From contig CAZPKG010000001.1 in NCBI GenBank assembly GCA_964587105.1, positions 115,508 to 179,507 on the forward strand: a stretch of DNA of 64,000 bases, written 5' to 3'. The notes below the pieces were generated by a model. The model did not search any database. It saw nothing but the letters and a program-made list of their open reading frames with translations, and was not told where the DNA came from. How positions within the stretch are numbered: position 1 is the stretch's first letter; every line of letters begins with the position of its first letter. Positions 29,201 to 50,355 of this stretch are shown one piece after another. Both the position numbers and the translations under genes were made by a program. The DNA is from an uncultured Alphaproteobacteria bacterium. Its GTDB lineage: Bacteria; Electryoneota; RPQS01.

Positions 29201-31674
29201 GCGCCGCCGGCGATACGATTGAAGCTCCGCTTGCGATTGACAATGGCCGGACGGCTCCGACGCCTGCTGCTCCAACGCAGATGGCTGCATCGGATGACGG
29301 CTGTGGTATCGTAACGGTGACATTTACGTTCGCAAATGTGGATGGTCAAGACTCGGTGATGGTGAAGCGCAATGGCGTTATCATTGCCCGTCTTGCGGGT
29401 GGCGTGGCAAACGTGCAGCGATCATTTGTTGATACCAGCCCGCTGGGTGTGACGGCGACCTATGAAGTCTGCCCGGTTTCGAATTTGTGCGGTCAGGGCG
29501 GATGTGCCAGCGATCTGGGCCAAGCGGCTCCGACGGCAGGTCTTGTAACCGACGTGACGGCAACAACCGATCGTTGTACTTCGATTATCGTCAGTTGGAC
29601 CGGAACGCAGTTCGCTTTGAACTATCAGGTTCGTCGAAATGGAACGCTGATCGCCACCGTGCCGCAAGGACAGTTTTCCCATACGGACAACGTCTCGACC
29701 GGCGTGGTGAATACCTATACTGTAACGGCTACAAACGCGTGCGGAAGCGGACCGCAGTCACAACCTGCGCAAGGTTCGACGATTCCGTTGCCGCCTGTTC
29801 CGACCGGAGTTTCGGCTTCAGACGGTTTGTGCAACCAGGTTGTTGTGACCTGGAATGAGATCGGCGTTGCGACGGGTTATGAAGTGTGGCGCAACAACGC
29901 GCTCTTGGCCGAAGTGCCGGGCGGTGTTGAAGTGTACACGGACCTTGCCGTGACACCGGGAACGACTTACAACTATCAAGTGCGCGGCGTTAACCAGTGC
30001 GGCAGCGGCAACTTGTCGGCAGCAACGACAGGTTTCTCGGCGCAAGTGATTACAACTGTCACAAACGTCGTAGCGACGACGAATTTGAATGACCGCGTCC
30101 GCATCACGTGGAACAACGTTCCGCAAGAAACGGGCTATCAGATTCTGCGCGGCTTCCCGGCGGAAGTGATTGCAACGGTCGGCATTGACGTGACCAGCTA
30201 CAATGACTTCTCGGCAGCTCCGGGTGAAGAGTATGAATACCGCGTGCGGGCATTTAACGGTTGCGGCGAAGGCGAAATGTCCGTCGTGACATACGGATAC
30301 CGCGTGCCGGTAGATCCCATTCCGTTCGGCGTCATAACCGTTACTGAAGAGTTGTTCGGCTGTTTGTCGGCGGTAGCGCAGGATATGGATAACGACGGCG
30401 ACGCGGACGTTGTGGCCGCCGGTATGTTTGCGGACAAAGTAGTGTGGTACGAGAATACGGGCACGTGGGATTACATTCCTCACGTCGTGGTCGAGAACTG
30501 GGATGGCGCGCGCTCGGTTGCGGTCGGCGATATTGACGACGACGGCGACATAGACATCGCGGCTGTGGCGCAGTTTGCCGATCAGCTGGTGTGGTTCCGC
30601 CACAATGCCAACGGCACATATACGACCTTCGTCATTGCGAATAATTACGACGGCGCGCGTGACGTGTCCATTGTGGACCTTGACCGCGACGGCGACAAGG
30701 ACCTCGTGACGGCAGCCTGCGACGCGAACGATATTTCTTGGTGGCGTAATAACGGTACGGAAACATTTACCCGCGTCGTGGTGGATAATAACTTCATTGG
30801 CGCGCGCACCGTGGAAGTCAAGGATATCGGCGGCGACAACGATTGGGACATTCTGGCGTCGGCCTACGAAGGTGGAATGCTGGCGTGGTACTCAAACAAC
30901 GGTACACAGACGTTTACGCGCAACGTGCTGATGTCTGACGTGTATGGCGCGTCGTATATCAGCGCGGCCCGCTTGAACAGTGATAACGTGCTGGATATCT
31001 ACTTCTGCGTCGCGCAACAGCCGATGATCGGATGGATTGACGGCGCAACGCAAACATTCCATGAAGTGACGACGTTGGTTCCGTTCCCGCGCGAAATGGA
31101 CGCGGTGGACATGGATCAGGATAATCGCGCGGATCTCTTGCTGGCGGCCAACGAGAACCAGGAAATTTCGTGGTGGCGCAATACAGACAACCGTTTCTAT
31201 CGCAATCCGATTACGACTACTCTGACGCAGGCGTCCGTGGTACATGGTGGTGACTTTGACAACGACGGCGACAATGACGTGTTGGGCGCAGGCGAAGGCA
31301 CCATCAAGATTTGGCTGTCGGCACTGTCGGACGATACGCATGAATCCGAACTTATCATTCCGCAGGATGACGGAACCGACAAGCCGACCTATAGCCAGTC
31401 GATCGTTCCGTTGAACTACGAACTGTCGGCGAACTACCCGAACCCGTTCAATCCGATGACGCAAATTCGGTTCGGTTTGCCGGAAGCACAGAATGTCAAG
31501 CTGACGGTGTATGACGTGACCGGTCGTGAAGTCGCCCGATTGGTGGACGGCTCGTTCGGAGCGGGTTACCATACCGTGACGTTTGATGCGACGAATCTGG
31601 CCAGCGGATTGTATCTGTATCGCATCGAAGCGGGTGACTTCGTGTCGAGCCGCAAGATGATCTTGATGAAGTAA
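23266..31674 (+). CDS. Giant (2802 aa) T9SS cargo protein with about 26 tandem FN3-like repeats, a 7-bladed FG-GAP/VCBS beta-propeller and a T9SS CTD. Putative cell-surface adhesin.
   Basis: RBS GGAGGTTATACG-ATG. Signal peptide MKFKTLLFAGCILLVSGLANA. About 26 units of roughly 90 aa, each with the pattern P..PT.(V/L).A(S/T)D..C..V.(V/L)TW...........Y.(V/I).R.G..(I/V)....TS(Y/F)TD......Y.Y.V.A.N.CG. Seven D(M/I/L/F)D.DGD.D FG-GAP calcium-binding blades (DMDNDGDAD ... DFDNDGDND). It ends YPNPFNPMTQIRFGL...VSSRKMILMK. Confidence 0.85.
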   Translation: MKFKTLLFAGCILLVSGLANAQFNATLYDFNGELTDACTGGTPYPDNAVTIEIFWDDNASGPDPTDEQPVVGDGFAECNFNSFLINGEQFGLPGTFYTDPLFTISTVTPQPSLYWLRICDNANGIMWISDTVRILNGLNDYDFGGLFTCHDSTCGGCTNPTTVLGFQATDVSCSQVSMTWNAYPADQDVDSLFIYRTNDQTLVTRLARTATSFNYTNAPDGTFNYYIKARKICAAPADTSFSTAASDFGTRVAAAIPPADTSFTAFPHPTQCGAVILQWRVPTSLATIDSFSVFLNGVLYDRTGPGLPNQQQRDTVFTGLSGVQNYTVSGWSEECGNGVQTIARQATAAQPPAQVTGLTASTGLCSVNLAWTAVPGATSYIVRRNGSQIGTPVTNSFSDATATVNTVFAYTVSAVNTSFPAACQEGAQSTSANGSRIGTPLAPTSVVASDSTFCTHVAISWTDNSSDESGFVVRRDGATIVTTAAGVTSFNDSLATAGNHNYDVAATNTCGTSTFATVNVGSKKAVPTTPTGLLATDNLPTHVRVTWNAIIRETNMRVLRNGVLLATIPADSVGYNDLTAVAGQVYAYSVLGFNECGDGAVSNVDSGRVLASLNAPTNILATDNLCDRVTVTWTDNNSAPQETSHSILRDGVIVGNVGANITTFDDFTGTPGVVYAYNVQAEGTGGPAIGVTPDNGKRRAAPAAPVIAADSVDCETVYVSFTRAADSDSTIFFLDGVQSVHSTSASGALSIALNDDAVHVLTAQSANACGRGTATTGINVQRDQTPTGILNLAGTSTDCNTIQVTWTSPVDATSFDMYMDGVPQGNVAATVPQPVTLISGNGPATRQIYFISRNACGVGDTSNVINVSVQQAPTAPTNVAASDTSCALVYVTWTASSGDVDGYTVLEGANVVGSTGPGVTTFSYDPGNSDVHQYTVFAFSTTCGNSASAGPDAGNKVAQPGVPTNLTFANNSCDSIRISWDAASGSPASYVIIENGDSVASTTNLHFEYVPAGGPGTYDISVASYSAFCGTGTPSAPVAIILFAQPTPVSGLTASSNRCDGVQLAWNTYTGINDGFIIYRNGVLVTTTAADAVGYFDAAAGLGANHYAVITLSNLTGCAESDSATANGAVLPLPTVPTNVAATDTSCADVFVTWTASSGTLDGYIVYRGGVQIATVNAPATSYTDTGISGGTTAAYTVAAFDDICGTSSQSTGDNGTRLQGPAAPTGVVASDNSCTQVDITWNTAPGDVTEYRVYRSGVFIGSVTPPTTSFTDAIATGTFAYTVTAFSTNCGETAQSVADDGTRLPQMGQVTGVTASVDSCQGILVTWAAHLGAVSYRISRDASFIAEVNAPTLQYFDNTVAEGVTHSYTVAAVNPCNTGVESGAAVGSRASTPSQVTGLTASTNLVSQVCLSWTDVTGELSYHIYRDAVLIATNGADDVDYCDITATPGTTYTYTVAAANVCGEGTLSVGAQGSAVFSLGQVTGLAATTTDCAQICLTWTDISNETGYEILRNGTTLATVGAGVVTYCDLTPAPGECFTYVVRGFNIGGNGPLSAEVQGCRRSIPTQVTGLTTTSTNCNAVVLNWNDATDEDRYDVYRDGGLLVQNVGALTYTDNSAVAGVVYAYTILAVNACGNAPQSVAVNGVRAMTPPPVTGGVASIDVCNQIGLNWSDQLSELGYRIYRDGNFLTPIATVNANTTIYVDANITGSHTYNIRAFNDCGNGDLSADIVGLGLTTPGIATNVAAVENCGDVTVTWTAPNTTPITEYRILRNGVQVGVVSAPATTYQDLNLPAGSYNYRVVTANQCGAGTQSAQSNGVTVIPTLVQVPTFTATASPCFCIDVTWGNVANEDGYYLYCDGVIVDTLGANVTSTNYCPADTQSCVVQVAAFNACEIGPLSVGNSVTPNTYPAMVSGFSASENICDRVRLTWNAYNQPGVTRLKIRRDGVAIATLLSGNTSFEQLGLWPQSVYSITALRVCAAGDTIEAPLAIDNGRTAPTPAAPTQMAASDDGCGIVTVTFTFANVDGQDSVMVKRNGVIIARLAGGVANVQRSFVDTSPLGVTATYEVCPVSNLCGQGGCASDLGQAAPTAGLVTDVTATTDRCTSIIVSWTGTQFALNYQVRRNGTLIATVPQGQFSHTDNVSTGVVNTYTVTATNACGSGPQSQPAQGSTIPLPPVPTGVSASDGLCNQVVVTWNEIGVATGYEVWRNNALLAEVPGGVEVYTDLAVTPGTTYNYQVRGVNQCGSGNLSAATTGFSAQVITTVTNVVATTNLNDRVRITWNNVPQETGYQILRGFPAEVIATVGIDVTSYNDFSAAPGEEYEYRVRAFNGCGEGEMSVVTYGYRVPVDPIPFGVITVTEELFGCLSAVAQDMDNDGDADVVAAGMFADKVVWYENTGTWDYIPHVVVENWDGARSVAVGDIDDDGDIDIAAVAQFADQLVWFRHNANGTYTTFVIANNYDGARDVSIVDLDRDGDKDLVTAACDANDISWWRNNGTETFTRVVVDNNFIGARTVEVKDIGGDNDWDILASAYEGGMLAWYSNNGTQTFTRNVLMSDVYGASYISAARLNSDNVLDIYFCVAQQPMIGWIDGATQTFHEVTTLVPFPREMDAVDMDQDNRADLLLAANENQEISWWRNTDNRFYRNPITTTLTQASVVHGGDFDNDGDNDVLGAGEGTIKIWLSALSDDTHESELIIPQDDGTDKPTYSQSIVPLNYELSANYPNPFNPMTQIRFGLPEAQNVKLTVYDVTGREVARLVDGSFGAGYHTVTFDATNLASGLYLYRIEAGDFVSSRKMILMK

Positions 31675-31738: not shown

Positions 31739-31795
31739 TGCTCGTAATATGTGGTACTGCTACTGTCACTTCAACCGGAATTACCGGAGCACAAT

Positions 31796-33817
31796 ATGTC
31801 TGAAGCGTTAGATCGTCTGAGTATTAACACGGTGCGTGGTTTAGCAATTGACGCGGTTCAAGCGGCGAACTCGGGGCATCCTGGATTGCCGCTTGGAGCC
31901 GCAGTGATGGGCTACACGATTTTTCAGAAGCATCTGCGGCATAATCCGCTTGATCCGGCTTGGGTGAATCGAGATCGATTTGTTCTGTCGGCGGGACATG
32001 GTTGCGCGCTGTTGTATTCGTTGCTGCATTTGACAGGTTACGATTTGCCGATGGAGCAACTTAAGAAATTTCGTCAATGGGACAGCATCACGCCGGGGCA
32101 TCCAGAGTTAGGGATGACGCCGGGCGTGGAAGCGACGACTGGTCCGCTTGGTCAAGGCGTCGGAAATATCGTGGGGATCGCAATAGCGCGCGAAATGCTG
32201 GCAGCGATGTTCAATCGAGAAGGGCACGACGTTATCAATTTCCGCGTGTTTGGAATTTGTTCCGACGGCGATTTGATGGAAGGAGTGGCGGCGGAAGCAG
32301 CTTCGCTTGCGGGCCATCTCGGACTTGGATCGATTGTCATGCTTTATGACGATAATCACATCACGATTGACGGTTCAACTGAGATTGCGTTCACTGAAGA
32401 CGTCGGCGTGCGATTTGAAAGCTACGGCTGGCAAGTTTTAGCGTGCGACGGGATGAACGCAGACGAAGTGGATCAAGCCATTCGCGAGGGGATTGCCGAG
32501 AGCGAGCGACCGACGTTGATTCGCTGCCGAACGCAGATTGGCTATGGTTCTCCGAACCGCGCAGGCACTTCGAAGGTGCATGGCGCGCCGCTGGGTGATG
32601 AAGAGTTGTCTTTGACCAAAAAAGCGCTCAGCTTGCCTGAGAACGAGAAATTCTATGTTGCTTCGGAAGTTTTCAAGTATATGGGCGCGGCGCGGCAATC
32701 GGGCGCGGAACGTCAGGCGGCTTGGCAGAGTTCATTAGAAAAATCGTTTGCGGCGAATGCTGGATTGCAGCATCTGTGGCAGCAATTTTGGTCACGCAGA
32801 CTGCCGGAAAATTGGGCCGACAAGCTTCCGACGTGGAAAACAACGGATAAGCCGATTGCCACGCGCAAGGCCTCGGAGATGTGTTTACATGCGGTGACAG
32901 AATTGCCGTGGATCGTCGGCGGCAGCGCGGACTTGGTGGAATCGAATCTCACTTATCTTGAAGGCAAGGGTGATTTTCAGCGCGATCATCATGCGGGCCG
33001 CAATATTCGATTCGGGATTCGTGAGCACGGCATGGGTGCGATCCTGAACGGACTGGCTGCCAGCGCGCCATTCATCGCGTTTGGCGCTACGTTCATGAAT
33101 TTTCTCGATTACATGAAACCGTCAGTGAGAATCGCGGCATTGTCGCATTTGCCGGTGCTGTATATTTTCACACATGACAGCATTGGCTTGGGCGAAGACG
33201 GCCCGACGCACCAGCCTATTGAGCACTTGACGCACATGCGCGCTACGCCGAACTTGTGGACCATGCGGCCGGCTGATGCGAATGAAACCGCGCAGTGCTA
33301 CCGAGTAGCGCTCGAGCGTACGGATGGGCCGGTGGCGCTGTGTTTGACGCGCCAGGCGTTGCCGATTCTTGAGTACCCAGGCGAACGGTTGCCGGTTGAG
33401 TTGGGCGCCTATGTTCTCGCGGAAGCGAAGAACGAAAAGCCGGAGATAATCCTCATGGCGAGCGGAAGTGAAGTGGAGATTGCGTTGGGCGCCAAGTCGA
33501 TGCTGGAACAGGAAGGGATTGCGACGCGCGTCGTATCCGTGCCGTGCGTAGAACTGTTCGACAAGCAGCCGCAAGCCTATCGCGAGCAGGTGTTGCCGGG
33601 CAATGTGCGCGCGCGCGTTGCAGTTGAGGCGGGCGCTACGTTGGGCTGGTGGAAATATATCGGGCTTGACGGCGACGTGGTGGGACTCGATCGGTTTGGT
33701 GCGTCTGCTCCCGCAAAGACTTTATATGAGAAATTCGGATTGACTGCCGAGAATGTCGCACGCCGCGCGATGTCGGTGCGTGAGCGCGCGCGCTCTGCTG
33801 AGGGAGTCTTGAAATGA
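31796..33817 (+). CDS. tkt: Transketolase
   Basis: Track ORF begins at an in-frame GTG at 31751. ATG at 31796 has a GGAG RBS. GHPG thiamine-diphosphate motif and GEDGPTHQP in the transketolase-family region. Confidence 0.9.
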
Positions 33818-34263
33818 AACTTGCAGTTGGAAGCGATCATGCGGGATTCGAACTCAAGAAAGAATTGGTAGATTGGCTGACTGCGCAAGGACACGTCGTC
33901 GTGGACGTGGGCACGCACTCAACGGAAGCCGCCGACTATCCCGATTTTGCACAGAAAGTCGGTCACGAAGTAACCGAGCGACGCGCTGAACGCGGAATCA
34001 TCGTATGCGGTAGTGGAGTGGGCGCGTGTGTGGCGGCGAACAAAATGAAGGGCATTCGCGCAGGAATGTGCCACGACACGTTTTCAGCCCGGCAGGGAGT
34101 GGAAGACGACGATATGAACACGCTGTGTTTGGGCGCGCGAATCATCGGAGGAGAACTCGCGCGCGAAGTGTTGAAGGCCTTTCTGAATGCGAAATTCTCA
34201 GGTCTCGAACGGCATCAACGTCGATTGAACAAAGTCCTCGCCATTGAGGCTGCCGGAAAGTAA
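33814..34263 (+). CDS. rpiB: Ribose-5-phosphate isomerase B
   Basis: [15 protein letters not shown]...[13 protein letters not shown] are RpiB/LacAB signatures. There is a 4-nt ATGA overlap with tkt. Confidence 0.9.
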
Positions 34264-34289
34264 GCGAACGAACAATTTAGGAGATAAAA

Positions 34290-35390
34290 ATGAGTCATCC
34301 GATTATGAAGGCCACGCTCGACTTAGGGCAGTCGTTGTGGCTTGATTACATCAGTCGGGAGTTGATGGACTCCGGCGGTCTTGAGCGACACGTTGCGGAA
34401 GGGCTGCGGGGTATGACCTCAAATCCGACTATTTTTGAGAAGGCGATTTCCGGAAGCGCGGACTATGATAACGACATTCGCAAAGGGATCGCGAGCGATC
34501 TGTCAGCCGGCGACGTGTTTGAGAATCTGGCCGTTTCTGACGTGGCGCGTGCATGCAACATGCTGTCGGGAGTGTACCACGATTCACAGGGCGTGGACGG
34601 CTATGTCAGTTTAGAAGTTTCGCCGACGCTCGCGCATGACACAAAAGGAACCGTGAAGGAAGCGCTGCGCTTGTGGGAGCGCGTGAACCGTCCGAACTTA
34701 ATGATCAAAGTTCCCGGCACGTCGGCGGGGATTCCTGCCGTTCTGGAACTCCTGACGCGTGGAGTGAATGTAAATATTACGTTACTGTTTACATTGGACC
34801 AGTACAAGCAGGTGCTTGAGACATACATTCAAGCTCTGGAAGCGCGCCATGCCGCTGGACAAAATCTCGCTCAAATGGCGTCAGTTGCGAGTTTCTTCAT
34901 CAGCCGAATTGATTCAGTGGCCGACGCGCAGCTTGAAAAACTGGGACGCAAAGACTTGATGGCTAAGGGTGCGATTGCGAACGCCTGTTTGGCTTACAAG
35001 CACTTTCAAAATGTCACCGCCTCGCCACGCTGGCAAAAGCTTGCACAGGCCGGCGCGCGCGTCCAAAGACCACTCTGGGCATCAACATCAACCAAGAATC
35101 CCGAGTACTCAGATGTACTCTATATCGAAGAACTGATCGCGGATCATACCGTGAATACCGTCCCGCCGCAAACGCTGTCGGCATTTAAGGATCACGGCAA
35201 GCCCGCTCTGAAGCTGCTGAAGAACATGGAAACGGCGGACAAGACTCTGACGGAAATGAAAAGCCTCGGAGTTGACATTGACAAGATTGCCTTCGATTTG
35301 ATTGAAGACGGCGTGGTCAAATTTGCTCAGTCGTTCGACGCGATGCTTGGCGCAATTAGTTCAAAGCTGAAAGCCGGCGCGACGGCATAG
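34290..35390 (+). CDS. tal: Transaldolase
   Basis: SLWLDYISRE...TSNPTIFEKAI...NLMIKVPGT...NITLLF is the transaldolase signature including the Schiff-base lysine region. Confidence 0.9.
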   Translation: MSHPIMKATLDLGQSLWLDYISRELMDSGGLERHVAEGLRGMTSNPTIFEKAISGSADYDNDIRKGIASDLSAGDVFENLAVSDVARACNMLSGVYHDSQGVDGYVSLEVSPTLAHDTKGTVKEALRLWERVNRPNLMIKVPGTSAGIPAVLELLTRGVNVNITLLFTLDQYKQVLETYIQALEARHAAGQNLAQMASVASFFISRIDSVADAQLEKLGRKDLMAKGAIANACLAYKHFQNVTASPRWQKLAQAGARVQRPLWASTSTKNPEYSDVLYIEELIADHTVNTVPPQTLSAFKDHGKPALKLLKNMETADKTLTEMKSLGVDIDKIAFDLIEDGVVKFAQSFDAMLGAISSKLKAGATA

Positions 35391-37574: not shown

Positions 37575-38252
37575 ATGACGGCAGAACAGCTTGCGGCCTA
37601 TATTGATCATACAATTCTTAAGCCCGAGGCTACTTTGGAGCAGGTCGAAAAATTGTGTGCTGAAGCGCGAGAATTTCGATTCAAAACGGTGTGCGTGAAT
37701 CCGCGATTCGTCAATCGATGCGCTGTGTTGCTTGAGGGTAGCGGCGTCGCGGTTTGTACGGTCATTGGATTTCCGTTAGGTGCGACGTGCACCGAGTCCA
37801 AGGTTGCAGAGTGTTTGCAGGCTGTTGCGGATGGAGCTACCGAGATTGACATGGTTTTGTGGATCGGCGGATTGATTGGAGGACGAAACGCAGATGTCGA
37901 GTTCGATATTCACGCCGTAGCTGACGCATGCCGACGGAGCGGCGCTTCTCTGAAAGTGATTTTTGAAACGGCGATGTTAACCGAAGATCAGATTATCACT
38001 GCGTGTGGGTTGTGCGTCAGAGCGGGAGCGAAATGGGTAAAGACGTCCACTGGATTTGGACCTGGCGGCGCAACGGTTGAGGCTGTCAAGATTATGCATC
38101 GTGAGGTTTCTGCTCACGGCCTAAAGGTGAAGGCGTCAGGCGGGATTCGCACGCTCGCAGATTTTAACAAAATGATCGAAGCGGGGGCCGAGCGGATTGG
38201 GACTTCGAGCGGAGTGGGGATTGTGAATGAGTTACTGAGTCAGTACTCGTAG
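37575..38252 (+). CDS. deoC: Deoxyribose-phosphate aldolase
   Basis: IDHTILKPEAT, VCVNP, GFPLG and KASGGIR (Schiff-base lysine) signatures. 225 aa. Confidence 0.85.
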   Translation: MTAEQLAAYIDHTILKPEATLEQVEKLCAEAREFRFKTVCVNPRFVNRCAVLLEGSGVAVCTVIGFPLGATCTESKVAECLQAVADGATEIDMVLWIGGLIGGRNADVEFDIHAVADACRRSGASLKVIFETAMLTEDQIITACGLCVRAGAKWVKTSTGFGPGGATVEAVKIMHREVSAHGLKVKASGGIRTLADFNKMIEAGAERIGTSSGVGIVNELLSQYS

Positions 38253-40397: not shown

Positions 40398-40625
40398 GAA
40401 GGGGTGGGGTGGTTCCGGAAGGGAGGGCGCGTGACATATCCCAAAGACTACTTCGCGCGGAAAAAGTTCCGAAGAGTAAGTGAACGCACATTTAAGTTTT
40501 ATTTAATTAATTATTTATATAAAAAAATTCCGGGAACTCGGAGATGGGGAAATTGTTTATTCCTTGAATGAGAAGCCGATTTTCCGTATTATTAGCAGCA
40601 ATTTACGAATCCAGAACCCTGACCC

Positions 40626-41555
40626 ATGTCCCATTCCCCAAAGAACCGCCTGACCGAGTCGCTAACTGACTTGCATAATCAATTCGGCGGCGCCCAGCAC
40701 TACAATTCGTCTCCAGAAAGCTCGCTTGCTTATCACCGGGTATTGCGGCGAGCACATACTGCTGACACAGTAGTTGGTGTGCGCGGCGTGGCGGTTGGCG
40801 GGCAGGAATTGACCGTTATCGCGGGGCCGTGCGCTGTTGAATCCGCACATCAGTTGATGACTGCGGCTGAGCAGGCGGCGACCAGTGGGGCGCATCTGTT
40901 GCGAGGAGGCGCGTTCAAATTGCGAACGTCGCCGTATGCGTTCGCAGGTCTTGGCGAACCTGCGTTAAAGATGCTGAGTGAAGCACGGCGTGTGTCCGGA
41001 TTGCCGGTCGTAACTGAAGTTGTGGACGAAGAGAGCGTTCTGCTCGCGGCGGCTCATGCAGACATGCTGCAAATCGGTACGCGGAATATGCACAACTACG
41101 TGTTACTGAAACAAGCGGCGGCGACGGGAAAGCCAATTCTCTTGAAGCGCGGCATGTCGGCGACACTGGATGAGTTTCTGCACGCGGCGGAGTATATTCT
41201 TGCGGCGGGGAATTCGCAAGTTGTTTTGTGCGAACGCGGTATTCGCACGTTTTCCGATTTTACGCGCAATACGCTTGATCTGAATATTGTTCCTGCGCTG
41301 AAACAGATTTCACATCTTCCAGTCATTACCGATCCATCGCATGGCACGGGCCGCAGCGATCTGGTTCCCCCGATGGCGCGCGCGTCCGTTGCAGCGGGAG
41401 CGGATGGTGTGCTGATTGAAATGCATCCTGACCCTGCGAAAGCTCTGTCAGATGGTTATCAATCGCTGGATCCTGCGGAGTTTGGTGAACTCGTCTCGGA
41501 TCTTGCCCGCATAGCGCCGATTGTCGGACGCACATTAACGCTCCGTGGCCGTTAA
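40626..41555 (+). CDS. aroF: 3-deoxy-7-phosphoheptulonate (DAHP) synthase, class I-beta (KDO8PS-like) type
   Basis: LTVIAGPCAVES...GAFKLRTSPYAFAGLGE...LLKRGM...HGTGR are class I-beta signatures. It leads the shikimate operon. The N-terminal roughly 55 aa is poorly conserved, so the start is uncertain. Confidence 0.75.
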   Translation: MSHSPKNRLTESLTDLHNQFGGAQHYNSSPESSLAYHRVLRRAHTADTVVGVRGVAVGGQELTVIAGPCAVESAHQLMTAAEQAATSGAHLLRGGAFKLRTSPYAFAGLGEPALKMLSEARRVSGLPVVTEVVDEESVLLAAAHADMLQIGTRNMHNYVLLKQAAATGKPILLKRGMSATLDEFLHAAEYILAAGNSQVVLCERGIRTFSDFTRNTLDLNIVPALKQISHLPVITDPSHGTGRSDLVPPMARASVAAGADGVLIEMHPDPAKALSDGYQSLDPAEFGELVSDLARIAPIVGRTLTLRGR

Positions 41556-42849
41556 TTTTCACTCGGCGCATGTGACTGCGGCAAATTCGCCGTTGTTTGC
41601 GCAGCTTACACTTTCCGGCGACAAATCCGTTTCGATTCGGCGCGCGCTCTTTTCGTTGTTCACGACGGACACGATTCGGTTGACGAATTACGGTTCAGGT
41701 GAAGATTGTCAGACTGCCCTTTTTTGTCTTGGTGAGCTTGGTAAGCGGATTGAGCGCGAAGAGAATCGAGTGACAATTTCTCATCGCGAGACGCCTAAAC
41801 AGGCGACCCTCGATTGTCGCAATTCGGGAACGACGGCCAGACTGCTCATGGGATTGCTGGCAGGCCGTGAAGGAGAGTGGACTCTCGTTGGCGATGATTC
41901 ACTATCACGACGACCAATGGAGCGGGTGGCGACTCCATTGCGAGCGATGGGGGCGAAAATTGAGCTTGCATCAGGCGGATGTTTACCGGCAAATATTGTC
42001 GGTCGGACGCTTAAGGGGACGGATCACGATTTGAAGATTTCAAGCGCGCAAGTCAAAAGCGCGCTTTTGTTAGCTGGACTTTTTGCCGACGGAGTAACGC
42101 GTGTTCGCGAACCGGTTGCCTCGCGGGATCACACGGAACGGTTACTTGGTTTGACTCAAGCGCCGGACGGATATTGGGGTGTTGATCGCTCGCTGCAACT
42201 GAGTGCAGGTTTGAGTTTGCGCGGCGCGATACCTGGAGATGTTTCAAGCGCGGCATTTTGGGCTGTGGCGGGATTGCTCGTGCCGGGTTCGGATATTTCA
42301 ATTGATAATGTGGTGTTGAATCCAACGCGCACTGGATGGCTAACATGTTTGAGGAACGGGGGCGCGAACGTGAGCGCGCGTTTCGAGCGCGAAACTGCCG
42401 GAGAGCCGGTCGGATCTTTGCAGATTCGGTATGGAAAGTTCTCCCCTCTGCATGTTCATGCTTCGGAAGTTCCCGGTCTGATTGATGAAATCCCTGCGTT
42501 GGCCGTATTGGCTGCGACGATCGACGGCGTTTCTACATTCGAACAGGTTGGCGAGTTGCGCGTCAAAGAGAGCGACCGATTGCAGTCGGTTGTCAGCGGA
42601 CTCACCGCAATGGGCGCAAAGGCGGAAGTTAAGGGCGACGATCTGATCGTACACGGTGGCGCGAAACTGCGAGGCGCGAAAATTGACTCGCAGAAAGACC
42701 ACAGAATTGCCATGTCGTTCGCGCTGGCGGGGCTTGCCGCATCGGGCAATACCGTTATTCAAGACGCCGATTGCGCCGCCGTATCATATCCTGAGTTTTT
42801 TGCCGAACTCTCTAAACTTGTTCCGGACTCCGTGAATCTAATTGAATAA
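41545..42849 (+). CDS. aroA: 3-phosphoshikimate 1-carboxyvinyltransferase (EPSP synthase)
   Basis: LSGDKSVSIRRALF, NSGTTARLLMG, LRVKESDRL and KDHRIAMSFALAGL signatures. Start is GTG at 41545 or 41572. Confidence 0.88.
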   Translation: MAVNFHSAHVTAANSPLFAQLTLSGDKSVSIRRALFSLFTTDTIRLTNYGSGEDCQTALFCLGELGKRIEREENRVTISHRETPKQATLDCRNSGTTARLLMGLLAGREGEWTLVGDDSLSRRPMERVATPLRAMGAKIELASGGCLPANIVGRTLKGTDHDLKISSAQVKSALLLAGLFADGVTRVREPVASRDHTERLLGLTQAPDGYWGVDRSLQLSAGLSLRGAIPGDVSSAAFWAVAGLLVPGSDISIDNVVLNPTRTGWLTCLRNGGANVSARFERETAGEPVGSLQIRYGKFSPLHVHASEVPGLIDEIPALAVLAATIDGVSTFEQVGELRVKESDRLQSVVSGLTAMGAKAEVKGDDLIVHGGAKLRGAKIDSQKDHRIAMSFALAGLAASGNTVIQDADCAAVSYPEFFAELSKLVPDSVNLIE

Positions 42850-43689
42850 ATGGCTTATCGCTTCGGCCTGATTGGCGAACATATCGCGACAAGTTTGTCA
42901 CCTGTGTTGTTCTCGTGGGCATTTCAGCAGACGGGAACCTCAGGTTCGTACACGCTGTTTGATTTTCCACGTCGATTGGCGCGATCGTTTCTGCTGCGCG
43001 CGCGCGTGGACTGGGACGGCCTGAATGTGACCGCACCGCATAAAGATCTGGCGTACACGTTGTGCGATGAGTTGACGGACGCCGCGATGAAAGTGCGTGC
43101 GGTGAACACTCTGGTGAGAAAACAAAGCAAGCTTGTCGGATACAACACGGACGTGGCCGGATTTCGCTACGCGTTGGAACAGAAACTCGAACTTGCGTCG
43201 AAAGCGGATCGCGTGCTGATTATCGGCACAGGCGGCGCGGCGCGCGCGGCCTTGGTTGCCGTTAGTCAGGTCTTGTCTCCGCTCGAAATCGCTGTGACTT
43301 CGCGCAAACCTGCCGAGGCTTTGGACAGAATCGCACCCGTGCTGCCTGCGCCGTTTGCGCCCGTGTTGTTGACGCACACAAAGGCGCGCAAGCGACTACA
43401 TGAGTTTGACGTTGTCGTGCAGGCCACGCCGATCGGGCATTTGGCAAATCCGGGTTTTCCGCTTGATCCGCCGTTTACATTTAAGCCCGGCGCGCTTGTG
43501 TTTGATTTGATATATTCGCCACGCAAAACGCTGTTTCTTGAGGCCGCGCAATCTTTTAACGCAGTCACGGAAAACGGACTGGTGATGCTGCTTGCGCAGG
43601 CGGCAGAGAGCTATCAAATTTGGACCGGCAAGCCGTTTCCGCTCGAGCTTGCCGTGCGCGAGCTCTTGCCTGAATTGCGCAACACATGA
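42850..43689 (+). CDS. aroE: Shikimate 5-dehydrogenase
   Basis: GLIGEHI.TSLSP, GLNVTAPHK, NTDVAGF and IIGTGGAARA (Rossmann GxGGA) signatures. Confidence 0.85.
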   Translation: MAYRFGLIGEHIATSLSPVLFSWAFQQTGTSGSYTLFDFPRRLARSFLLRARVDWDGLNVTAPHKDLAYTLCDELTDAAMKVRAVNTLVRKQSKLVGYNTDVAGFRYALEQKLELASKADRVLIIGTGGAARAALVAVSQVLSPLEIAVTSRKPAEALDRIAPVLPAPFAPVLLTHTKARKRLHEFDVVVQATPIGHLANPGFPLDPPFTFKPGALVFDLIYSPRKTLFLEAAQSFNAVTENGLVMLLAQAAESYQIWTGKPFPLELAVRELLPELRNT

Positions 43690-44849
43690 TCAGATTCTTA
43701 ACTGCAGGTGAGAGCCACGGACCGGGACTGACGGGGATTCTTGAGGGAATGCCCGCCGGATTAACATTGTCTGAAGCGGAGATCGCCTTTGATCTGGCGC
43801 GTCGTCAACGCGGTCATGGACGCGGTGGACGAATGAAAATTGAAATGGATTACGCGCGCATCACGAGTGGCGTCCGCTATGGTTTGACGCTCGGTTCGCC
43901 AATTGCTCTATTTATTGAGAATCGAGATTGGGAGAATTGGCGCGATAAGATGTCCGTTGCCGATCCGGGTGCAGAGAAACGAATTGACAGACTCGCGAGT
44001 CCACGTCCCGGTCATGCGGACTATGCAGGTTCAATCAAATACCACCAGGATGACATTCGCAACGTCATCGAGCGCTCATCGGCGCGTGAAACCACGATGC
44101 GAGTGGCGCTTGCGGCAATCTGCCGCAAGTTCCTGAGCGAATTTGGCGTGAGAGTTTATAGTCACGTCGTCAAAATCGGCGGCGTCGAAGCGGCGCAGCT
44201 TGCGCATGACGCGAACCTCGCTGAGCATTTCGCTAAAGTGGAAGAGAGTCCGGTGCGGTGCGGCGATTCAATTGCGGAACGAAAGATGATCGAGATTATT
44301 GACCGTGCGACGGAAGCTAAAGATACGGTCGGCGGAGAGTTTGAGGTCATTGTGGAAGGATTGCCCGTCGGATTGGGGAGCTATGTTCATTACGATCGCA
44401 GGATTGACGGCATTCTCGCGCAAGCGATGCTGTCGATTCATGCAATGAAGGGCGTCGAATTTGGGATGGGTTTTGAAGTGGCGAACGTATTCGGAAGTCA
44501 AGTTCACGACCGAATCTTTCCATTTGAAAAAGATATTGTGCGCACGACTAATAACGCGGGCGGCACAGAAGGCGGCATGACCAATGGGGAGCGCTTGGTG
44601 CTGCGCGTGGCGATGAAACCGCTGTCGTCGCTGATGCAGCCGCTGGAATCTGTGAACCTCAAAACGAATGAACCGATTGAAGCGTTGCGCGAGAGGAGCG
44701 ACGTGTGTGCCGTTCCCGCCGGAGGAATCGTCGGCGAAGCGATGGCGTTGCTCGCGTTGATGAATCCGTTTATGGAGAAATTCGGCGGAGATTCAATGAC
44801 TGAAATTCGTGCGCACATTCAGGCAACACCGGGGTCGCCATGGCGATAG
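43686..44849 (+). CDS. aroC: Chorismate synthase
   Basis: FLTAGESHGPGL...RRQRGHGRGGRM...RPGHADY...GGTEGGMTNGE are chorismate synthase signatures. Confidence 0.9.
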   Translation: MIRFLTAGESHGPGLTGILEGMPAGLTLSEAEIAFDLARRQRGHGRGGRMKIEMDYARITSGVRYGLTLGSPIALFIENRDWENWRDKMSVADPGAEKRIDRLASPRPGHADYAGSIKYHQDDIRNVIERSSARETTMRVALAAICRKFLSEFGVRVYSHVVKIGGVEAAQLAHDANLAEHFAKVEESPVRCGDSIAERKMIEIIDRATEAKDTVGGEFEVIVEGLPVGLGSYVHYDRRIDGILAQAMLSIHAMKGVEFGMGFEVANVFGSQVHDRIFPFEKDIVRTTNNAGGTEGGMTNGERLVLRVAMKPLSSLMQPLESVNLKTNEPIEALRERSDVCAVPAGGIVGEAMALLALMNPFMEKFGGDSMTEIRAHIQATPGSPWR

Positions 44850-45361
44850 TTTACTTGTGCGGCCTGCCGGGATCAGGGAAGAGTACCATTGGCCCGCTGC
44901 TTGCAAAATTGCGCGGTCAGCCGTTCATAGATTTGGATACGATGATTGCTGAGCGCGCCGGGATGGATATTCCGGCGATTTTTCGTTCATTGGGCGAGCC
45001 GAAATTTCGCGACTTTGAAAATCTTGCTCTTGTGCAGGCAGCGAGTCGCGGCGACAGTGTGATTGCGCTGGGCGGCGGCGCATTGGGCCGTGAAGACAAC
45101 CGTGATATTGTGCTCGCGAGCGGAATGCTGATTCACCTCGAAGCGCCGTTGGCATTGTTGGCTGCACGGACCATGAATCAACTCAACCGGCCGCTGCTTG
45201 ACAGCAATGATTCGCTGACTGAGCGGTTGGCGGCGCTGAAGAGTTTGAACGAGCGGCGCAAAGACCAGTACGAGCTTGCACCGCTAAGTTTTCCGACGAC
45301 GGATGAGGATCCGATGCAGACTGCGCTGATGATTTTTGAGGCAATTGATGGACTCGTTTGA
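44840..45361 (+). CDS. aroK: Shikimate kinase
   Basis: VYLCGLPGSGKSTIG P-loop, FIDLDT, and a size of 173 aa. Confidence 0.85.
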   Translation: MAIVYLCGLPGSGKSTIGPLLAKLRGQPFIDLDTMIAERAGMDIPAIFRSLGEPKFRDFENLALVQAASRGDSVIALGGGALGREDNRDIVLASGMLIHLEAPLALLAARTMNQLNRPLLDSNDSLTERLAALKSLNERRKDQYELAPLSFPTTDEDPMQTALMIFEAIDGLV

Positions 45362-46913
45362 CCTGAAAACACAGAGCGGCATTGTGCCTATCCGTTATGC
45401 TTTTTCAAACGCGACGTGGGTGGCGAATGAGATCGCTCGCATGTTGGGAGTGCGCAGACCGCGTTTGTTCGTCGTGACAGATGAAAACGTGGCGCTGCAC
45501 CATCTTGAAAACCTGAAGTCTGCGCTCATTTCGGACGGATTCAGCCTTGACGTGTGCATCTTGCCGCCGGGTGAGGAGCAGAAGACGATTGCCCGCACGA
45601 AGTTCCTGCTTGACATTTTGGCGCAGAAGAGATTCGCCCGTGATGATATTGTACTTGCTTTGGGCGGTGGAGTGATTACGGACTTGGCTGGATTTTCGGC
45701 GAGCGTGTACCAGCGTGGGATTCAATGGATTGCAATTCCGACGACGCTGTTGGGAATGGTGGACGCTGCGATTGGCGGAAAGACGGGCGTCAATCACGAA
45801 CTGGGCAAAAACTTGATCGGCTCGTTTCATCAACCCAGGATGGTGCTGGCTGAGTTGTCGATGTTGAGCACGTTGGCGCCGCGCGGGATTCGTTCAGGCG
45901 CCGCTGAGATTGTCAAGGGCGCGCTGCTCGCGGGTGGAGATTTTTGGAGTGAAATTGAGTCTGCGAGTGCAGACGCGATGCAGTGGAGTCCACGGCAATT
46001 GGAGCGTTTTGTCGCACGCGGAGCGGCAGTGAAGATTGATATCGTAGCACGCGATGAACGCGAAAGTGGCGACAGAATGCTGCTCAATTTGGGGCACACA
46101 TTCGGGCATGCGCTTGAACAGGTTAGCGGTTACGGCTCACTTGCCCATGGTGAAGCGGTGTTCTACGGCATTCGCGCGGCGATCAGGCTCTCTGAGAAAT
46201 GCGGCATGATGCCGCAGCCGAAAGCACGCTCTCTCGACAAATGGATCGCAACGCTTGAGTTGCCAGGAGCGAAATGCACGGCGGATGAACTCATGTCTGC
46301 GATTCAATCCGACAAGAAGACGGCATCTGGGAAACTCCGATGGATTCTCTTGCGCGAGCCGGGAAAGCCTGTGATCAGTCACGATGTACCGGAACAGGTC
46401 GTGCGCGAGTGCGCTGAATGGCTTGCCGAGGTCACAAGTAGTGGGGCGGAGGCAATTTCGATTCCGCGTCGGCGGCGCGTCGTCGTATTAAATGGTCCGA
46501 ATTTGAATTTGTTGGGGTCGCGTGAACCTTCGGTGTATGGCTCCATGACGTATGAAGAATTGAGCAAACAATGTTTTGAGTGGGCTGAAGACCTCAATTT
46601 TGATCTGTTGATTCGGCAAAGCAATCACGAAGGTGAGTTTGCCGAGTTGATTCAGTGGGCGCGCCGCTGGGCAGACGGATTGATTCTAAATCCCGGCGCG
46701 TTTACACATACATCTGTTGCTGTCCGCGATGCGCTTGCCGCCGCAAAATTACCTGCGGTTGAGGTTCATCTTTCGGACCCGTCCGCGCGTGAAGAGTTTC
46801 GCCACACCTCCCTCATTTCGGATTTGTGCCGCCGGACCATCAAAGGGCTCGGCCCTGATGGCTACCGGGAGGCCCTGACCGAACTTGCCTTCTCCCTGCC
46901 GGAAACCGCCTAA
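45348..46913 (+). CDS. aroB-aroQ: Bifunctional fusion: 3-dehydroquinate synthase (N-terminal, about 370 aa) plus type II 3-dehydroquinate dehydratase (C-terminal, about 150 aa)
   Basis: Track ORF starts at TTG 45336; ATG at 45348 gives MDSFDLK. The N-terminal half has GGGVITDLAGF...GGKTGVNH...GHTFGHALE DHQ-synthase motifs. The C-terminal half has VLNGPNLNLLG..EP.VYG, QSNHEGE, NPGAFTHTS and EVHLSD...REEFRH type II dehydroquinase motifs. Confidence 0.85.
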   Translation: MDSFDLKTQSGIVPIRYAFSNATWVANEIARMLGVRRPRLFVVTDENVALHHLENLKSALISDGFSLDVCILPPGEEQKTIARTKFLLDILAQKRFARDDIVLALGGGVITDLAGFSASVYQRGIQWIAIPTTLLGMVDAAIGGKTGVNHELGKNLIGSFHQPRMVLAELSMLSTLAPRGIRSGAAEIVKGALLAGGDFWSEIESASADAMQWSPRQLERFVARGAAVKIDIVARDERESGDRMLLNLGHTFGHALEQVSGYGSLAHGEAVFYGIRAAIRLSEKCGMMPQPKARSLDKWIATLELPGAKCTADELMSAIQSDKKTASGKLRWILLREPGKPVISHDVPEQVVRECAEWLAEVTSSGAEAISIPRRRRVVVLNGPNLNLLGSREPSVYGSMTYEELSKQCFEWAEDLNFDLLIRQSNHEGEFAELIQWARRWADGLILNPGAFTHTSVAVRDALAAAKLPAVEVHLSDPSAREEFRHTSLISDLCRRTIKGLGPDGYREALTELAFSLPETA

Positions 46914-47094
46914 CCCCTCCTCCCGTACAATGGTTACTTTCAGGCGACAGGTTGTGCTTGAAATTCCGCCCGATATTCCGTAAGTTGAGTATTCACCGGA
47001 ATCTAATCAGACTTCATGTGAAGCTCGTCACAATCTCCGGCTGAGCGATCACCTCAATTGGTTAAGATAATTATTTACAGGACTTTTCGTTGAC

Positions 47095-48084
47095 ATGAGC
47101 CGCGAAATTCACAATGTTATTATCATCGGCTCCGGCCCGGCCGGACTGACCGCCGCGATTTATGCCGGACGCGCTAACTTGAATCCCGTCGTGATTGACG
47201 GCATCCAGCCCGGAGGCCAACTCATGATCACGAGCGACGTCGAGAACTATCCGGGCTTTCCAGATGGCATCGAAGGCCCCGCCTTGATGGACCTCATGCG
47301 CCGTCAGGCCGAGCGATTCGGGACCAAGTATGTCGAAGACGAGGTGACCTCCCTTGACGTGACACAGCGGCCATTTAAGGTAAACCTCGGCTACTTGCCG
47401 TCTATGTATGCGCATACAGTGATTCTGGCGTCCGGGGCTTCTGCCAAGTGGCTTGGACTCGAGAGCGAAAAGCGATTGCAGGGTAAAGGTGTTTCCGCCT
47501 GCGCAACGTGCGACGGATTCTTCTTCCGTGGTAAAGTTGTGGCCGTCGTGGGTGGCGGTGACACAGCCATGGAAGAGGCGTCCTACTTGACACGTCATGC
47601 TTCAAAAGTTTATTTGATTCACCGTCGTGATTCGTTCCGCGCATCGAAGATTATGCAAGATCGCGTGCTGGAAAATCCCAAGATCGAAGTTATCTATAAC
47701 TCGGGAATTACTGAAGTTCTTGCAGAAGCAGGTGATACTCACGTCAACGGGTTGCGGATTAAGAACCTTGTTACGGGCGCAGAGACCACATTGCCGGTGG
47801 ATGGGTTCTTTGTTGCTATCGGCCATGAACCGAATACAAGAATCATTCGCGATATATTGAAAACCGACGAAAATGGTTACGTTCTGCATCATCCTGATTC
47901 GAGCTACACCGATATCGAAGGATTGTTTGTAGCCGGCGACGTGCATGATCATCACTACCGTCAGGCCATCACTGCCGCCGGCGCTGGCTGCATGGCGGCG
48001 ATTGACGCCGAACGCTGGCTCGAAATTGAAGCTCATGAAGGCCGCTTGAAAGCCGCCGAAGAGAAACTGTTCGCAACTGCATAA
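47095..48084 (+). CDS. trxB: Thioredoxin-disulfide reductase
   Basis: GSGPAG FAD motif, CATCDG redox-active disulfide, GGGD NADPH motif, 329 aa. Confidence 0.9.
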   Translation: MSREIHNVIIIGSGPAGLTAAIYAGRANLNPVVIDGIQPGGQLMITSDVENYPGFPDGIEGPALMDLMRRQAERFGTKYVEDEVTSLDVTQRPFKVNLGYLPSMYAHTVILASGASAKWLGLESEKRLQGKGVSACATCDGFFFRGKVVAVVGGGDTAMEEASYLTRHASKVYLIHRRDSFRASKIMQDRVLENPKIEVIYNSGITEVLAEAGDTHVNGLRIKNLVTGAETTLPVDGFFVAIGHEPNTRIIRDILKTDENGYVLHHPDSSYTDIEGLFVAGDVHDHHYRQAITAAGAGCMAAIDAERWLEIEAHEGRLKAAEEKLFATA

Positions 48085-49547: not shown

Positions 49548-49967
49548 ATGAAGTCAATTATTCTTGTTTCCTTGTTGTTTGCTGTGTCAATTGCTTTTGC
49601 TGAAGAGCATAGCGCCGGACCGCTGCTTGCACAAGCCACGCAATTTGATTCCAAGAATGCCGCCACGCGCGTCATGCCGCTTTACGAACAAGGCTGGAAT
49701 GAGGGCGCGCCTGTAGGAGATGCGCACTCTGGTAAACTCGGCTGGTTCGGATTGGGGTTGGTCGGAAATATTCCGTTCATTTGGCTGCCGTGGGTGGTTG
49801 AACCGCGCCGCCCCGCCAAGCCCCCCGTGCAAGCCGAAGAAGAATTTAAAAGCGGTTTCAAGAACGGACATCGAGCCGGATGGAAGAACGCGCACAAAGG
49901 GTTCTATATCGCGGGCGCAATAGTGTCCACTGCAGCGGCAGTAACCGTCGTCGCAACTCAGGAGTAG
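49548..49967 (+). CDS. Small exported or membrane protein of unknown function
   Basis: Signal peptide MKSIILVSLLFAVSIAFA. Two hydrophobic segments. No recognisable motif. Confidence 0.45.
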   Translation: MKSIILVSLLFAVSIAFAEEHSAGPLLAQATQFDSKNAATRVMPLYEQGWNEGAPVGDAHSGKLGWFGLGLVGNIPFIWLPWVVEPRRPAKPPVQAEEEFKSGFKNGHRAGWKNAHKGFYIAGAIVSTAAAVTVVATQE

Positions 49968-49968
49968 C

Positions 49969-50355
49969 ATGTTTCGTTTTGTCCCGCTCGTTTTCATGTT
50001 GGTAATTTTGATCGGCTGCAGCAAAGAAGAGGTCAAGAAAACACAGACCGCAACTCCACCGCAGGAGATGCAAAAGCGCGATCCAGCCTCCTTTGTTGAT
50101 GCAAATTTCTTGGGCAAACAATCGGTAAAGCGCGATGAAGTGAGACACGAGCTTGATTCGCTGCGCAGTGCTTCCGTAATTGACCGGAAACGCATCGCCG
50201 TGTTGATCAACCATCGCAAAGGCGAGTTGATGGCGCTGAAGAAAAATCTACGAGGAAGCACGCAGCTGACTCCGGCAGAGCGCGATTCACTGATTGCGCC
50301 GCTTGACGAAGAGTCTCTTGAATTGACGAACGACCTGATTGCGGTCGCGAAATAG
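49969..50355 (+). CDS. Small lipoprotein of unknown function
   Basis: MFRFVPLVFMLVILIGCSKEE lipobox. The remainder is predicted helical and charged. It starts 1 nt after the previous gene. Confidence 0.45.
   Translation: MFRFVPLVFMLVILIGCSKEEVKKTQTATPPQEMQKRDPASFVDANFLGKQSVKRDEVRHELDSLRSASVIDRKRIAVLINHRKGELMALKKNLRGSTQLTPAERDSLIAPLDEESLELTNDLIAVAK

Follow-up and report, generated by a model that had tools for sequence, protein, structure and literature searches.

A compact six-gene shikimate operon with a rare and conserved AroB–AroQ fusion in an uncultured FCB-group bacterium

We analysed a 64,000-nucleotide (nt) stretch of DNA from an uncultured bacterium (assembly GCA_964587105.1, contig CAZPKG010000001.1, positions 115,508 to 179,507), hereafter called the window, in which six open reading frames (ORFs) at 40626-46913 on the forward strand were assigned by Pfam and NCBIfam to the shikimate pathway genes aroF, aroA, aroE, aroC and aroK and to a gene, termed aroBQ here, that encodes AroB fused to AroQ. 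By these sequence-based assignments the six genes cover the whole seven-step route that leads from sugar phosphates to chorismate, which bears out the view, put forward in a preliminary description of the window, that a complete pathway is encoded in one compact six-gene unit. [quoted passage not shown] The match is confined to profile positions 64-336, and the Pfam and NCBIfam scan detected neither an FXD (ferredoxin-like regulatory, PF18152) nor a chorismate-mutase domain in AroF, indicative of a core-only form; its N-terminus consists of ~40 low-complexity residues with no recognisable allosteric domain. It is followed by aroA (41545-42849, GTG start, 434 residues), predicted to encode EPSPS (5-enolpyruvylshikimate 3-phosphate synthase), the enzyme of step 6 (PF00275, 321 bits; TIGR01356, 340 versus 287), then by aroE (42850-43689, 279 residues) for the shikimate dehydrogenase of step 4, aroC (43686-44849, 387 residues) for the chorismate synthase of step 7 (PF01264, 384 bits; NF003793, 423 versus 321), aroK (44840-45361, 173 residues) for the shikimate kinase of step 5, and finally by aroBQ (45348-46913, 521 residues) for steps 2 and 3. 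The latter starts with the ATG at 45348 that is common to its homologues (MDSF…), and a TTG located 12 nt upstream is not conserved as a start.

Two of the six gene products are divergent. AroE matches PF08501 (Shikimate_dh_N) with 70 bits and PF18317 (SDH_C) with 34 bits and scores 184 bits against TIGR00507, below the cut-off of 200, while AroK matches PF01202 (SKI) with 123 bits and stays under every NCBIfam equivalog cut-off (best 111 versus 186). Both nevertheless clearly belong to their families as judged from Pfam and from the motifs in their translations, namely SLS, NVTAPHK, NTD and GTGGAARA in AroE, which we take to be AroE hallmarks, and the Walker A motif GLPGSGKST along with DLD and GGG in AroK. 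As a consequence of the sub-threshold scores, automated pipelines may assign only generic names to these two genes. The six genes are close-packed, with overlaps of 11, 0, 4, 10 and 14 nt at consecutive junctions. The earlier statement that the genes overlap by 4-14 nt throughout thus holds for four of the five junctions (aroF/aroA, 11 nt; aroE/aroC, 4 nt in the form of ATGA; aroC/aroK, 10 nt; aroK/aroBQ, 14 nt), but not for aroA/aroE, where the TAA stop is directly followed by the ATG. The 11-nt overlap of aroF and aroA also occurs in two of the related loci described below (L083 and L085). A literature search for other complete shikimate clusters in a single operon found no support for such cases; Thermotoga maritima probably has its genes in the same order, as aroF-tyrA-aroA-aroE-aroC-aroKB-aroQ.

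The 521-residue product of aroBQ is composed of an AroB domain (3-dehydroquinate synthase, DHQS; residues 1-364, encoded at 45348-46439), an 11-residue inter-domain linker, SGAEAISIPRR (residues 365-375, 46440-46472), and an AroQ domain (type II 3-dehydroquinate dehydratase, or dehydroquinase; residues 376-521 plus the stop codon, 46473-46913). Pfam recognises DHQ_synthase and DHQS_C at residues 74-329, followed by DHquinase_II at residues 382-517. The AroB domain scores 148 bits against PF01761, 137 bits against PF24621 and 339.9 against TIGR01357 (cut-off 305), and the AroB half can be aligned over its full length to the DHQS of Acinetobacter baumannii (PDB entry 5eks) with 252 bits. When an AlphaFold2 model of the protein was compared by Foldseek with solved DHQS targets, the target-normalised template-modelling (TM) scores were 0.87-0.91, and the 24 best matches in the PDB were all DHQS or the related 2-deoxy-scyllo-inosose synthase (target-normalised TM 0.77-0.91, E-values down to 3.5e-29), so that the modelled AroB domain has the DHQS fold. 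In an alignment of 26 fusion proteins GGGV..D..GF (106-116), D139, K145, N155, E187, K190 and K229 are invariant, as are R243, N247, H250, H254 and H267. The hallmarks of DHQS are all present, including the glycine-rich NAD+ motif, the GGK(T)G loop, the Glu/His/His metal ligands and the motifs LNxGHTxGHAxE and HGEAV. The roles of these residues are presumed from the Aspergillus nidulans DHQS structure rather than from residue-level mapping.

The AroQ domain scores 175.3 bits against PF01220 (cut-off 23.3) and 178.2 against NF003807 (cut-off 130), and lies only just above the cut-off of TIGR01088 (171.4 versus 169.85). The preliminary description had assigned the C-terminal part to a type II dehydroquinase on the strength of four motifs; all four are present in the translation, and domain annotation, which finds both DHQ_synthase and DHquinase_II, upholds the C-terminal assignment at 175 bits. 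Residues 378-514 match residues 5-141 of the Mycobacterium tuberculosis dehydroquinase chain 1h05 without a gap, and residues of the AroQ domain therefore correspond to published active-site residues: N385 to Asn12, R392 to Arg19, Y397 to Tyr24, N448 to Asn75, H454 to His81, D461 to Asp88, E472 to Glu99, H474 to His101, S476 to Ser103, R481 to Arg108 and R485 to Arg112. In the 26-member alignment all of them are invariant but for S476, which at least 90% of the members retain. Going by the family literature, these residues would presumably form the Tyr/Arg lid, the His-Glu pair and the Asn/His/Ser/Arg substrate-binding set. An invariant WADG motif of the AroQ domain was considered as a fusion-specific interface and rejected, as stand-alone AroQ proteins of Chloroflexi and Poribacteria also have it.

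AlphaFold2, run on the family alignment, gave a compact two-domain model of the monomer with a predicted local distance difference test (pLDDT) score of 87.4 and a predicted TM score (pTM) of 0.85. In this model the last helix of the DHQS domain (349-364) is followed by a coil linker (365-375, pLDDT 75-79) and by the first strand of the dehydroquinase domain (376-382). Confidence drops in just two places, the GGKTG loop of the DHQS domain and the catalytic lid of the dehydroquinase domain, both of which are known to be mobile. Judged from the conservation of their active sites, both halves of AroBQ would be expected to be catalytically competent, converting DAHP via 3-dehydroquinate into 3-dehydroshikimate.

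The fusion is shared by a family of proteins. A search of 5.8 billion protein clusters retrieved ~60 full-length clusters (at 90% identity) of 508-538 residues that are 44-100% identical and have the same AroB plus DHquinase_II architecture. One orthologue (P0009, 73% identity) recurs unchanged on at least 24 independent contigs drawn from NCBI, JGI, ENA and Logan, and across all 26 core-clade homologues aligned the linker keeps an open frame and can be aligned. The proposal of an in-frame fusion of AroB with a type II dehydroquinase is thus confirmed by Pfam, by NCBIfam and by ~60 homologous clusters.

How widespread the fusion is was assessed with a family profile searched (E ≤ 1e-30) against one representative per 50%-identity cluster of ~15 billion proteins. 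This yielded 16,820 relatives among 1.84 billion proteins. As both domains add to the score, fusions are expected at the top of the ranking, yet only nine of the best 150 of these 16,820 relatives span both domains, in keeping with the earlier notion that the fusion is uncommon. The nine are P0025 from the clade of the window, two fragments, a divergent 505-residue protein (P0127) and five proteins of 673-711 residues that are AroK–AroB–AroQ by Pfam; more divergent fusions could lie below the best 150. When the two domains were scored separately, unfused AroB proteins, for example from Zixibacteria, reached 260-276 bits and other fused proteins 143-238 bits. Because the AroB domain of the window resembles unfused AroB proteins more than it does the other fusions, the fusion is, on sequence similarity, probably polyphyletic, with several origins, at least three as the scores suggest, from the widespread adjacent aroB–aroQ pair.

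A plausible starting point for such origins was seen in other phyla. A scan of contigs with the family alignment, which responds to generic AroB motifs, gave mostly unfused AroB among the matches listed, with close relatives of the window absent from them, and the 15 loci among these matches that extended over both halves turned out, without exception, to hold aroB and aroQ as separate neighbouring genes. The loci, which belong to Chloroflexi, Actinomycetota, Zixibacteria and Poribacteria, have a separate aroQ directly behind aroB; the two are in the same frame in 12 of the 15, and in eight of these a single stop codon lies between them (for example …IGE*MSLTKVIVLNGPN). One lost stop codon is enough to make the fusion. 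We therefore envisage an evolutionary route in which the stop codon separating aroB from the adjacent aroQ would have been lost and the resulting fusion then kept under purifying selection in the clade of the window.

Other proteins with both domains differ in context and composition, and the contexts of P0064, P0062 and P0066 support several origins of the fusion. P0064, on a hydrothermal-vent contig, lies in an aroC–aroK–aroBQ context. In a spore-forming Firmicute (P0062; L091, 3660-7213) an AroC–AroK fusion of 625 residues and, directly behind it, an independent AroB–AroQ fusion of 559 residues, followed by pepP and efp, condense four consecutive aro genes into two polypeptides. Tri-domain AroK–AroB–AroQ proteins of 673-711 residues come from metagenomes (P0129, P0131, P0132, P0135, P0152 and P0066), and P0066, on metagenome contigs (L089/L090), adjoins anthranilate-synthase-like genes. 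P0063 (784 residues) has an extra C-terminal CDGSH iron-sulfur zinc-finger domain.

Homologues of AroBQ fall into clusters named 'bacterium', 'Calditrichota bacterium' and 'candidate division KSB1 bacterium', and the operon is probably a housekeeping chorismate biosynthesis operon of an uncultured bacterium of the FCB (Fibrobacterota–Chlorobiota–Bacteroidota) group whose nearest named relatives are labelled Calditrichota and KSB1. The same six-gene operon is present in relatives with 73%, 63% and 61% identity, the last (GCA_020637395.1) labelled Calditrichota. These loci share an upstream flank of Hpt, response regulator and DeoC-type aldolase genes (with a divergent gene for a thioredoxin/NHL protein) and a downstream flank of trxB, lpd, two genes of unknown function, proS, cobO and ftsH. 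Operon variants were found at 49-51% identity: the KSB1-labelled locus L084 is without aroF at the aro locus, L086 (51%) has a glutamine amidotransferase (GATase) gene and an FXD-domain DAHP synthase gene in front of the aro genes, and L087 has genes for chorismate mutase and two FXD-domain DAHP synthases and tyrA ahead of aroA-E-C-K-BQ. As the deeper branches vary in this way, the full seven-step unit is a trait of the window's sub-clade, and the 3' block aroC–aroK–aroBQ the conserved core. The operon-encoded DAHP synthases of the deeper fusion-bearing relatives carry PF18152 (L086, 2178-3203; L087, 261-2298), and feedback control in the window's sub-clade may differ from that in these FXD-bearing relatives.

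Upstream of aroF, a consensus scan predicts a σ70-like promoter on the forward strand at 40564-40592, with a −35 box TTGAAT (40564-40569), a 17-nt spacer and a −10 box TATTAT (40587-40592), which would put the transcription start near 40599 and leave a leader of ~26 nt ahead of the aroF ATG. The corresponding boxes in the relatives whose fusion proteins are 73%, 63% and 61% identical are TTGAAT/TATAAT, TTGAAT/TATAAT and TTGACT/TATTTT, respectively. The conservation of these boxes and the close packing of the genes suggest that the promoter is functional and that the aro genes are co-transcribed. A seven-codon mini-ORF with one Phe codon (40544-40567, forward strand) lies in a 10-nt insertion that is absent from the relatives, and its stop overlaps the −35 hexamer, which places the mini-ORF upstream of the predicted transcript. 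A search for terminator-like hairpins between the mini-ORF and aroF came up empty, and Rfam gave no match in the whole window at gathering thresholds and none in the aroF leader at E ≤ 1. On these grounds (overlap with the −35 box, a single Phe codon, location in an indel, no hairpin and no Rfam match) we rejected the mini-ORF as a leader-peptide attenuator, and the Rfam result likewise led us to discard the idea that the aroF leader holds a riboswitch, T-box or attenuator. The doubt that the preliminary description had voiced about attenuation by the mini-ORF was justified by the −35 overlap, the 10-nt indel and the Rfam result.

The 3' limit of the aro unit is probably marked by a promoter-like element on the forward strand at 46958-46982, ahead of a trxB-like gene (47095-48084). 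This element and the aroF promoter (40564-40588) are the only two sites in the 64 kb that contain the 25-nt motif TTGAA-N9-GATWTTCCGTA, for which 0.08 sites are expected, and the trxB copy of the motif is kept upstream of trxB in L081, L083 and L085. A second conserved promoter-like motif in this position suggests that trxB has its own promoter and that the aro unit ends at aroBQ; the scan picked up no terminator-like hairpin in the stretch from aroBQ to trxB. Downstream of the trxB copy, the 27-nt sequence GTAAGTTGAGTATTCACCGGAATCTAA (46980-47006) shows no difference between the window, L081 and L083 and one changed base in L085, in contrast to protein identities of only 61-73% among these loci. 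It contains the inverted repeat ATTCCG…CGGAAT, has no match in Rfam and, with the motif, could represent a shared operator or an element of the 5' untranslated region.

Several neighbouring genes deserve mention. A tight cluster on the forward strand 5-9 kb upstream of the aro genes (31751-35390) encodes transketolase (31751-33817), RpiB (33814-34263) and transaldolase (34290-35390), enzymes of the non-oxidative pentose-phosphate pathway that make erythrose-4-phosphate, a substrate of DAHP synthase; a transaldolase gene also lies upstream in the KSB1-labelled locus L084. A conserved gene for a DeoC/LacD-family aldolase of 225 residues (37575-38252, forward strand) lies closely upstream of the aro genes in every syntenic relative, also in the KSB1 locus without aroF. 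In archaea an aldolase of the DeoC/LacD superfamily provides an alternative first step of aromatic biosynthesis, by which no tie to the window gene is implied. Between lpd and proS, two forward-strand ORFs of 139 (49548-49967) and 128 (49969-50355) residues have no Pfam match; ORFs of similar size and position in L081, L084, L085 and L086 indicate that they are conserved genes. Further away, a 2,802-residue protein (23266-31674, forward strand) combines fibronectin-III, FG-GAP and rhamnogalacturonan-lyase-like domains with a C-terminal sorting tail of the type IX secretion system, a tail that fits an organism of the FCB group, and a 1,628-residue NosD-like (β-helix) protein is encoded at 6549-11435 on the reverse strand.

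No chain in the PDB covers both halves of AroBQ, either by sequence or by fold (best query-normalised TM 0.64, for DHQS only). A full-text literature search returned no description of a natural AroB–AroQ fusion, an earlier mention (in Richards et al. 2006 or in InterPro architecture tables) being possible, and the lone literature match to 'aroBQ' was discarded because it is a gene list, 'aroBQEA', not a fusion. NCBIfam has curated bifunctional families for AroK–AroB and for AroD–AroE, no AroB–AroQ model was among the matches, and NCBI names the AroBQ homologues "3-dehydroquinate synthase" only.

The closest parallels are other shikimate pathway fusions. AROM/Aro1 of fungi and protists also combines a DHQS and a dehydroquinase in one polypeptide, and its DHQS domain is homologous to that of AroBQ (6hqv, 7u5s and 1dqs match residues ~61-342). 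However, AROM has five domains in the order DHQS, EPSPS, shikimate kinase, dehydroquinase and shikimate dehydrogenase, in which DHQS and dehydroquinase are not adjacent, whereas AroBQ consists of these two adjacent domains. Moreover, the dehydroquinase of AROM is of type I, which has an unrelated fold and typically dimerises (PMC6851490), while that of AroBQ is of type II (PF01220). AroBQ thus works like a fragment of AROM and is not a member of that family, EPSPS, shikimate kinase and shikimate dehydrogenase being encoded by separate genes. The AroK–AroB proteins (NF010556, NF010627) are, like AroBQ, bacterial AroB fusions made from neighbours in the order aroC-aroK-aroB-aroQ. They differ in that AroB is joined to an N-terminal shikimate kinase, linking the non-consecutive steps 5 and 2, whereas the partner in AroBQ is C-terminal and the window's aroK is a separate gene; the rare AroK–AroB–AroQ proteins combine both fusions. 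The plant dehydroquinase–shikimate dehydrogenase (DHQD–SDH, AroD–AroE) protein resembles AroBQ in fusing two consecutive steps that include the dehydroquinase, but the steps joined are 3 and 4, whereas AroBQ joins 2 and 3, and the plant dehydroquinase is of type I with another partner. This plant fusion has been proposed to favour local supply of the intermediate (PMC10305709). Finally, the stand-alone aroB and aroQ of actinobacterial and Chloroflexi aroC-aroK-aroB-aroQ clusters encode the same enzymes in the same order and with the same neighbours; these adjacent genes give two polypeptides, whereas the clade of the window lacks the stop codon and has the ~11-residue linker.

The sequence data show which genes are present, how the domains of the fusion are arranged and conserved, that it is rare and that its catalytic residues are intact. 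We regard it as likely that the locus is a housekeeping shikimate operon with a bifunctional AroBQ whose benefit would most likely lie in equimolar synthesis and co-localisation. One σ70-like promoter would drive the six close-packed genes aroF, aroA, aroE, aroC, aroK and aroBQ. The N-terminal NAD+- and metal-dependent DHQS domain would cyclise DAHP to 3-dehydroquinate, which the C-terminal type II dehydroquinase domain, held by the ~11-residue linker, would dehydrate to 3-dehydroshikimate, and aroF, aroA, aroE, aroC and aroK would supply steps 1 and 4-7. The fusion would most likely pay off by forcing two consecutive enzymes to be made 1:1 and in one place; proximity might also affect 3-dehydroquinate, and a kinetic benefit is one that we can only infer. 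Several points weigh against this interpretation. The 64 kb covered are part of a genome that may hold extra copies of aroB, aroQ or aroD elsewhere. The exact substrate specificities assumed for AroE and AroK, which miss the equivalog cut-offs, follow from motifs and context. As no terminator was found after aroBQ, transcription may extend further by read-through, and in the relative L086 trxB overlaps aroBQ. Lastly, the oligomeric states of the two enzymes, an obligate dimer for DHQS and normally a dodecamer for type II dehydroquinase, look incompatible in one chain.

Could AroBQ instead be an artefact of sequencing or assembly, in which a stop codon was lost or a frameshift introduced between adjacent aroB and aroQ genes? 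Pairs of aroB and aroQ with one in-frame stop between them are common in other phyla, and the databases do hold spurious-looking fusions, such as P0068 with its scrambled AroB C-terminus and the N-terminally truncated, mycobacterial-like P0067 and P0070. A frameshift artefact is nonetheless effectively excluded, and we give next to no weight to this explanation, because the ~60 independent clusters from four data sources maintain the same open frame and a conserved, alignable linker at 44-100% identity, one orthologue occurs unaltered on at least 24 contigs, and the AlphaFold2 model is confident and compact. Scarcely more probable is that AroBQ serves another purpose than chorismate biosynthesis, be it quinate/shikimate catabolism or secondary metabolism as a sugar-phosphate cyclase, or that one of its domains is dead. 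AroB homologues do include 2-deoxy-scyllo-inosose and related cyclases, seen here as weaker PDB matches (2d2x, 4p53), and quinate catabolism, too, makes use of type II dehydroquinases. However, AroBQ passes TIGR01357 and falls far under the cut-off of the related cyclase family TIGR04425 (226 versus 400), no quinate-utilisation genes lie adjacent, and the operon holds the other five shikimate enzymes and no other aroB or aroQ. As to a dead domain, a study on Candida albicans Aro1 reports that only four of its five domains are active (PMC9074039), but in AroBQ the catalytic residues of both domains are invariant.

The alternative that deserves most attention is that the fusion serves channelling of 3-dehydroquinate, as the preliminary description had proposed on the premise of a labile intermediate. 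In this case DHQS dimers and a dehydroquinase oligomer would form a defined higher-order particle that sequesters 3-dehydroquinate. The two domains catalyse consecutive steps, and the short linker and high pTM of the model suggest a fixed orientation of the domains. D461 is invariant and is, we assume, the equivalent of the Asp that type II dehydroquinases donate to the neighbouring subunit across the trimer interface, which suggests that at least trimers persist and that oligomerisation is probably retained. Type II dehydroquinases are tetrahedral dodecamers, that is, tetramers of trimers, and the solved entries matched by AroBQ comprise 12-24 chains; among them, enzymes of 12 or 24 chains formed in spite of ~25-residue N-terminal tags (3n59, 4kiw), indicating that N-terminal appendages are tolerated. 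DHQS, for its part, is an obligate dimer (PMC6851490). The fused chain might conceivably assemble into a discrete particle of ~0.7 MDa (12 × 57 kDa), in which a dehydroquinase core would bear six DHQS dimers at its two-fold axes and 12 + 12 active sites would be co-localised, an assembly that we consider doubtful. If it did form, such a 'dimer plus trimer' cage might retain 3-dehydroquinate and would give the shikimate pathway a new quaternary architecture and designed fusion cages a natural counterpart. Against channelling, 3-dehydroquinate is not notably labile, being a reasonably stable and freely diffusing metabolite, and the vast majority of bacteria use separate enzymes. Furthermore, the chorismate mutase–cyclohexadienyl dehydratase (CM–CDT) fusion, a rare shikimate-related fusion studied structurally and kinetically, showed neither channelling nor a catalytic benefit (PMC10520331). 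We therefore hold channelling as the purpose of the fusion to be unlikely, and true channelling to be a distinctly weaker alternative than guaranteed 1:1 co-expression.

AroBQ is thus a rare, conserved and apparently uncharacterised architecture built from two well-known enzymes whose chemistry is ordinary. AROM, AroK–AroB and plant DHQD–SDH are the textbook cases in the debate on whether enzymes are fused for channelling or for mere co-regulation, and AroBQ adds to them a minimal and tractable bacterial case for steps 2 and 3 with a type II dehydroquinase. In what is otherwise ordinary housekeeping metabolism, its interest lies in enzyme quaternary structure, in the evolution of fusions and in pathway annotation in uncultured FCB-group genomes: as AroBQ is annotated mostly as "3-dehydroquinate synthase", step 3 of the shikimate pathway could be wrongly called missing in metagenome-assembled genomes of Calditrichota- or KSB1-like bacteria.

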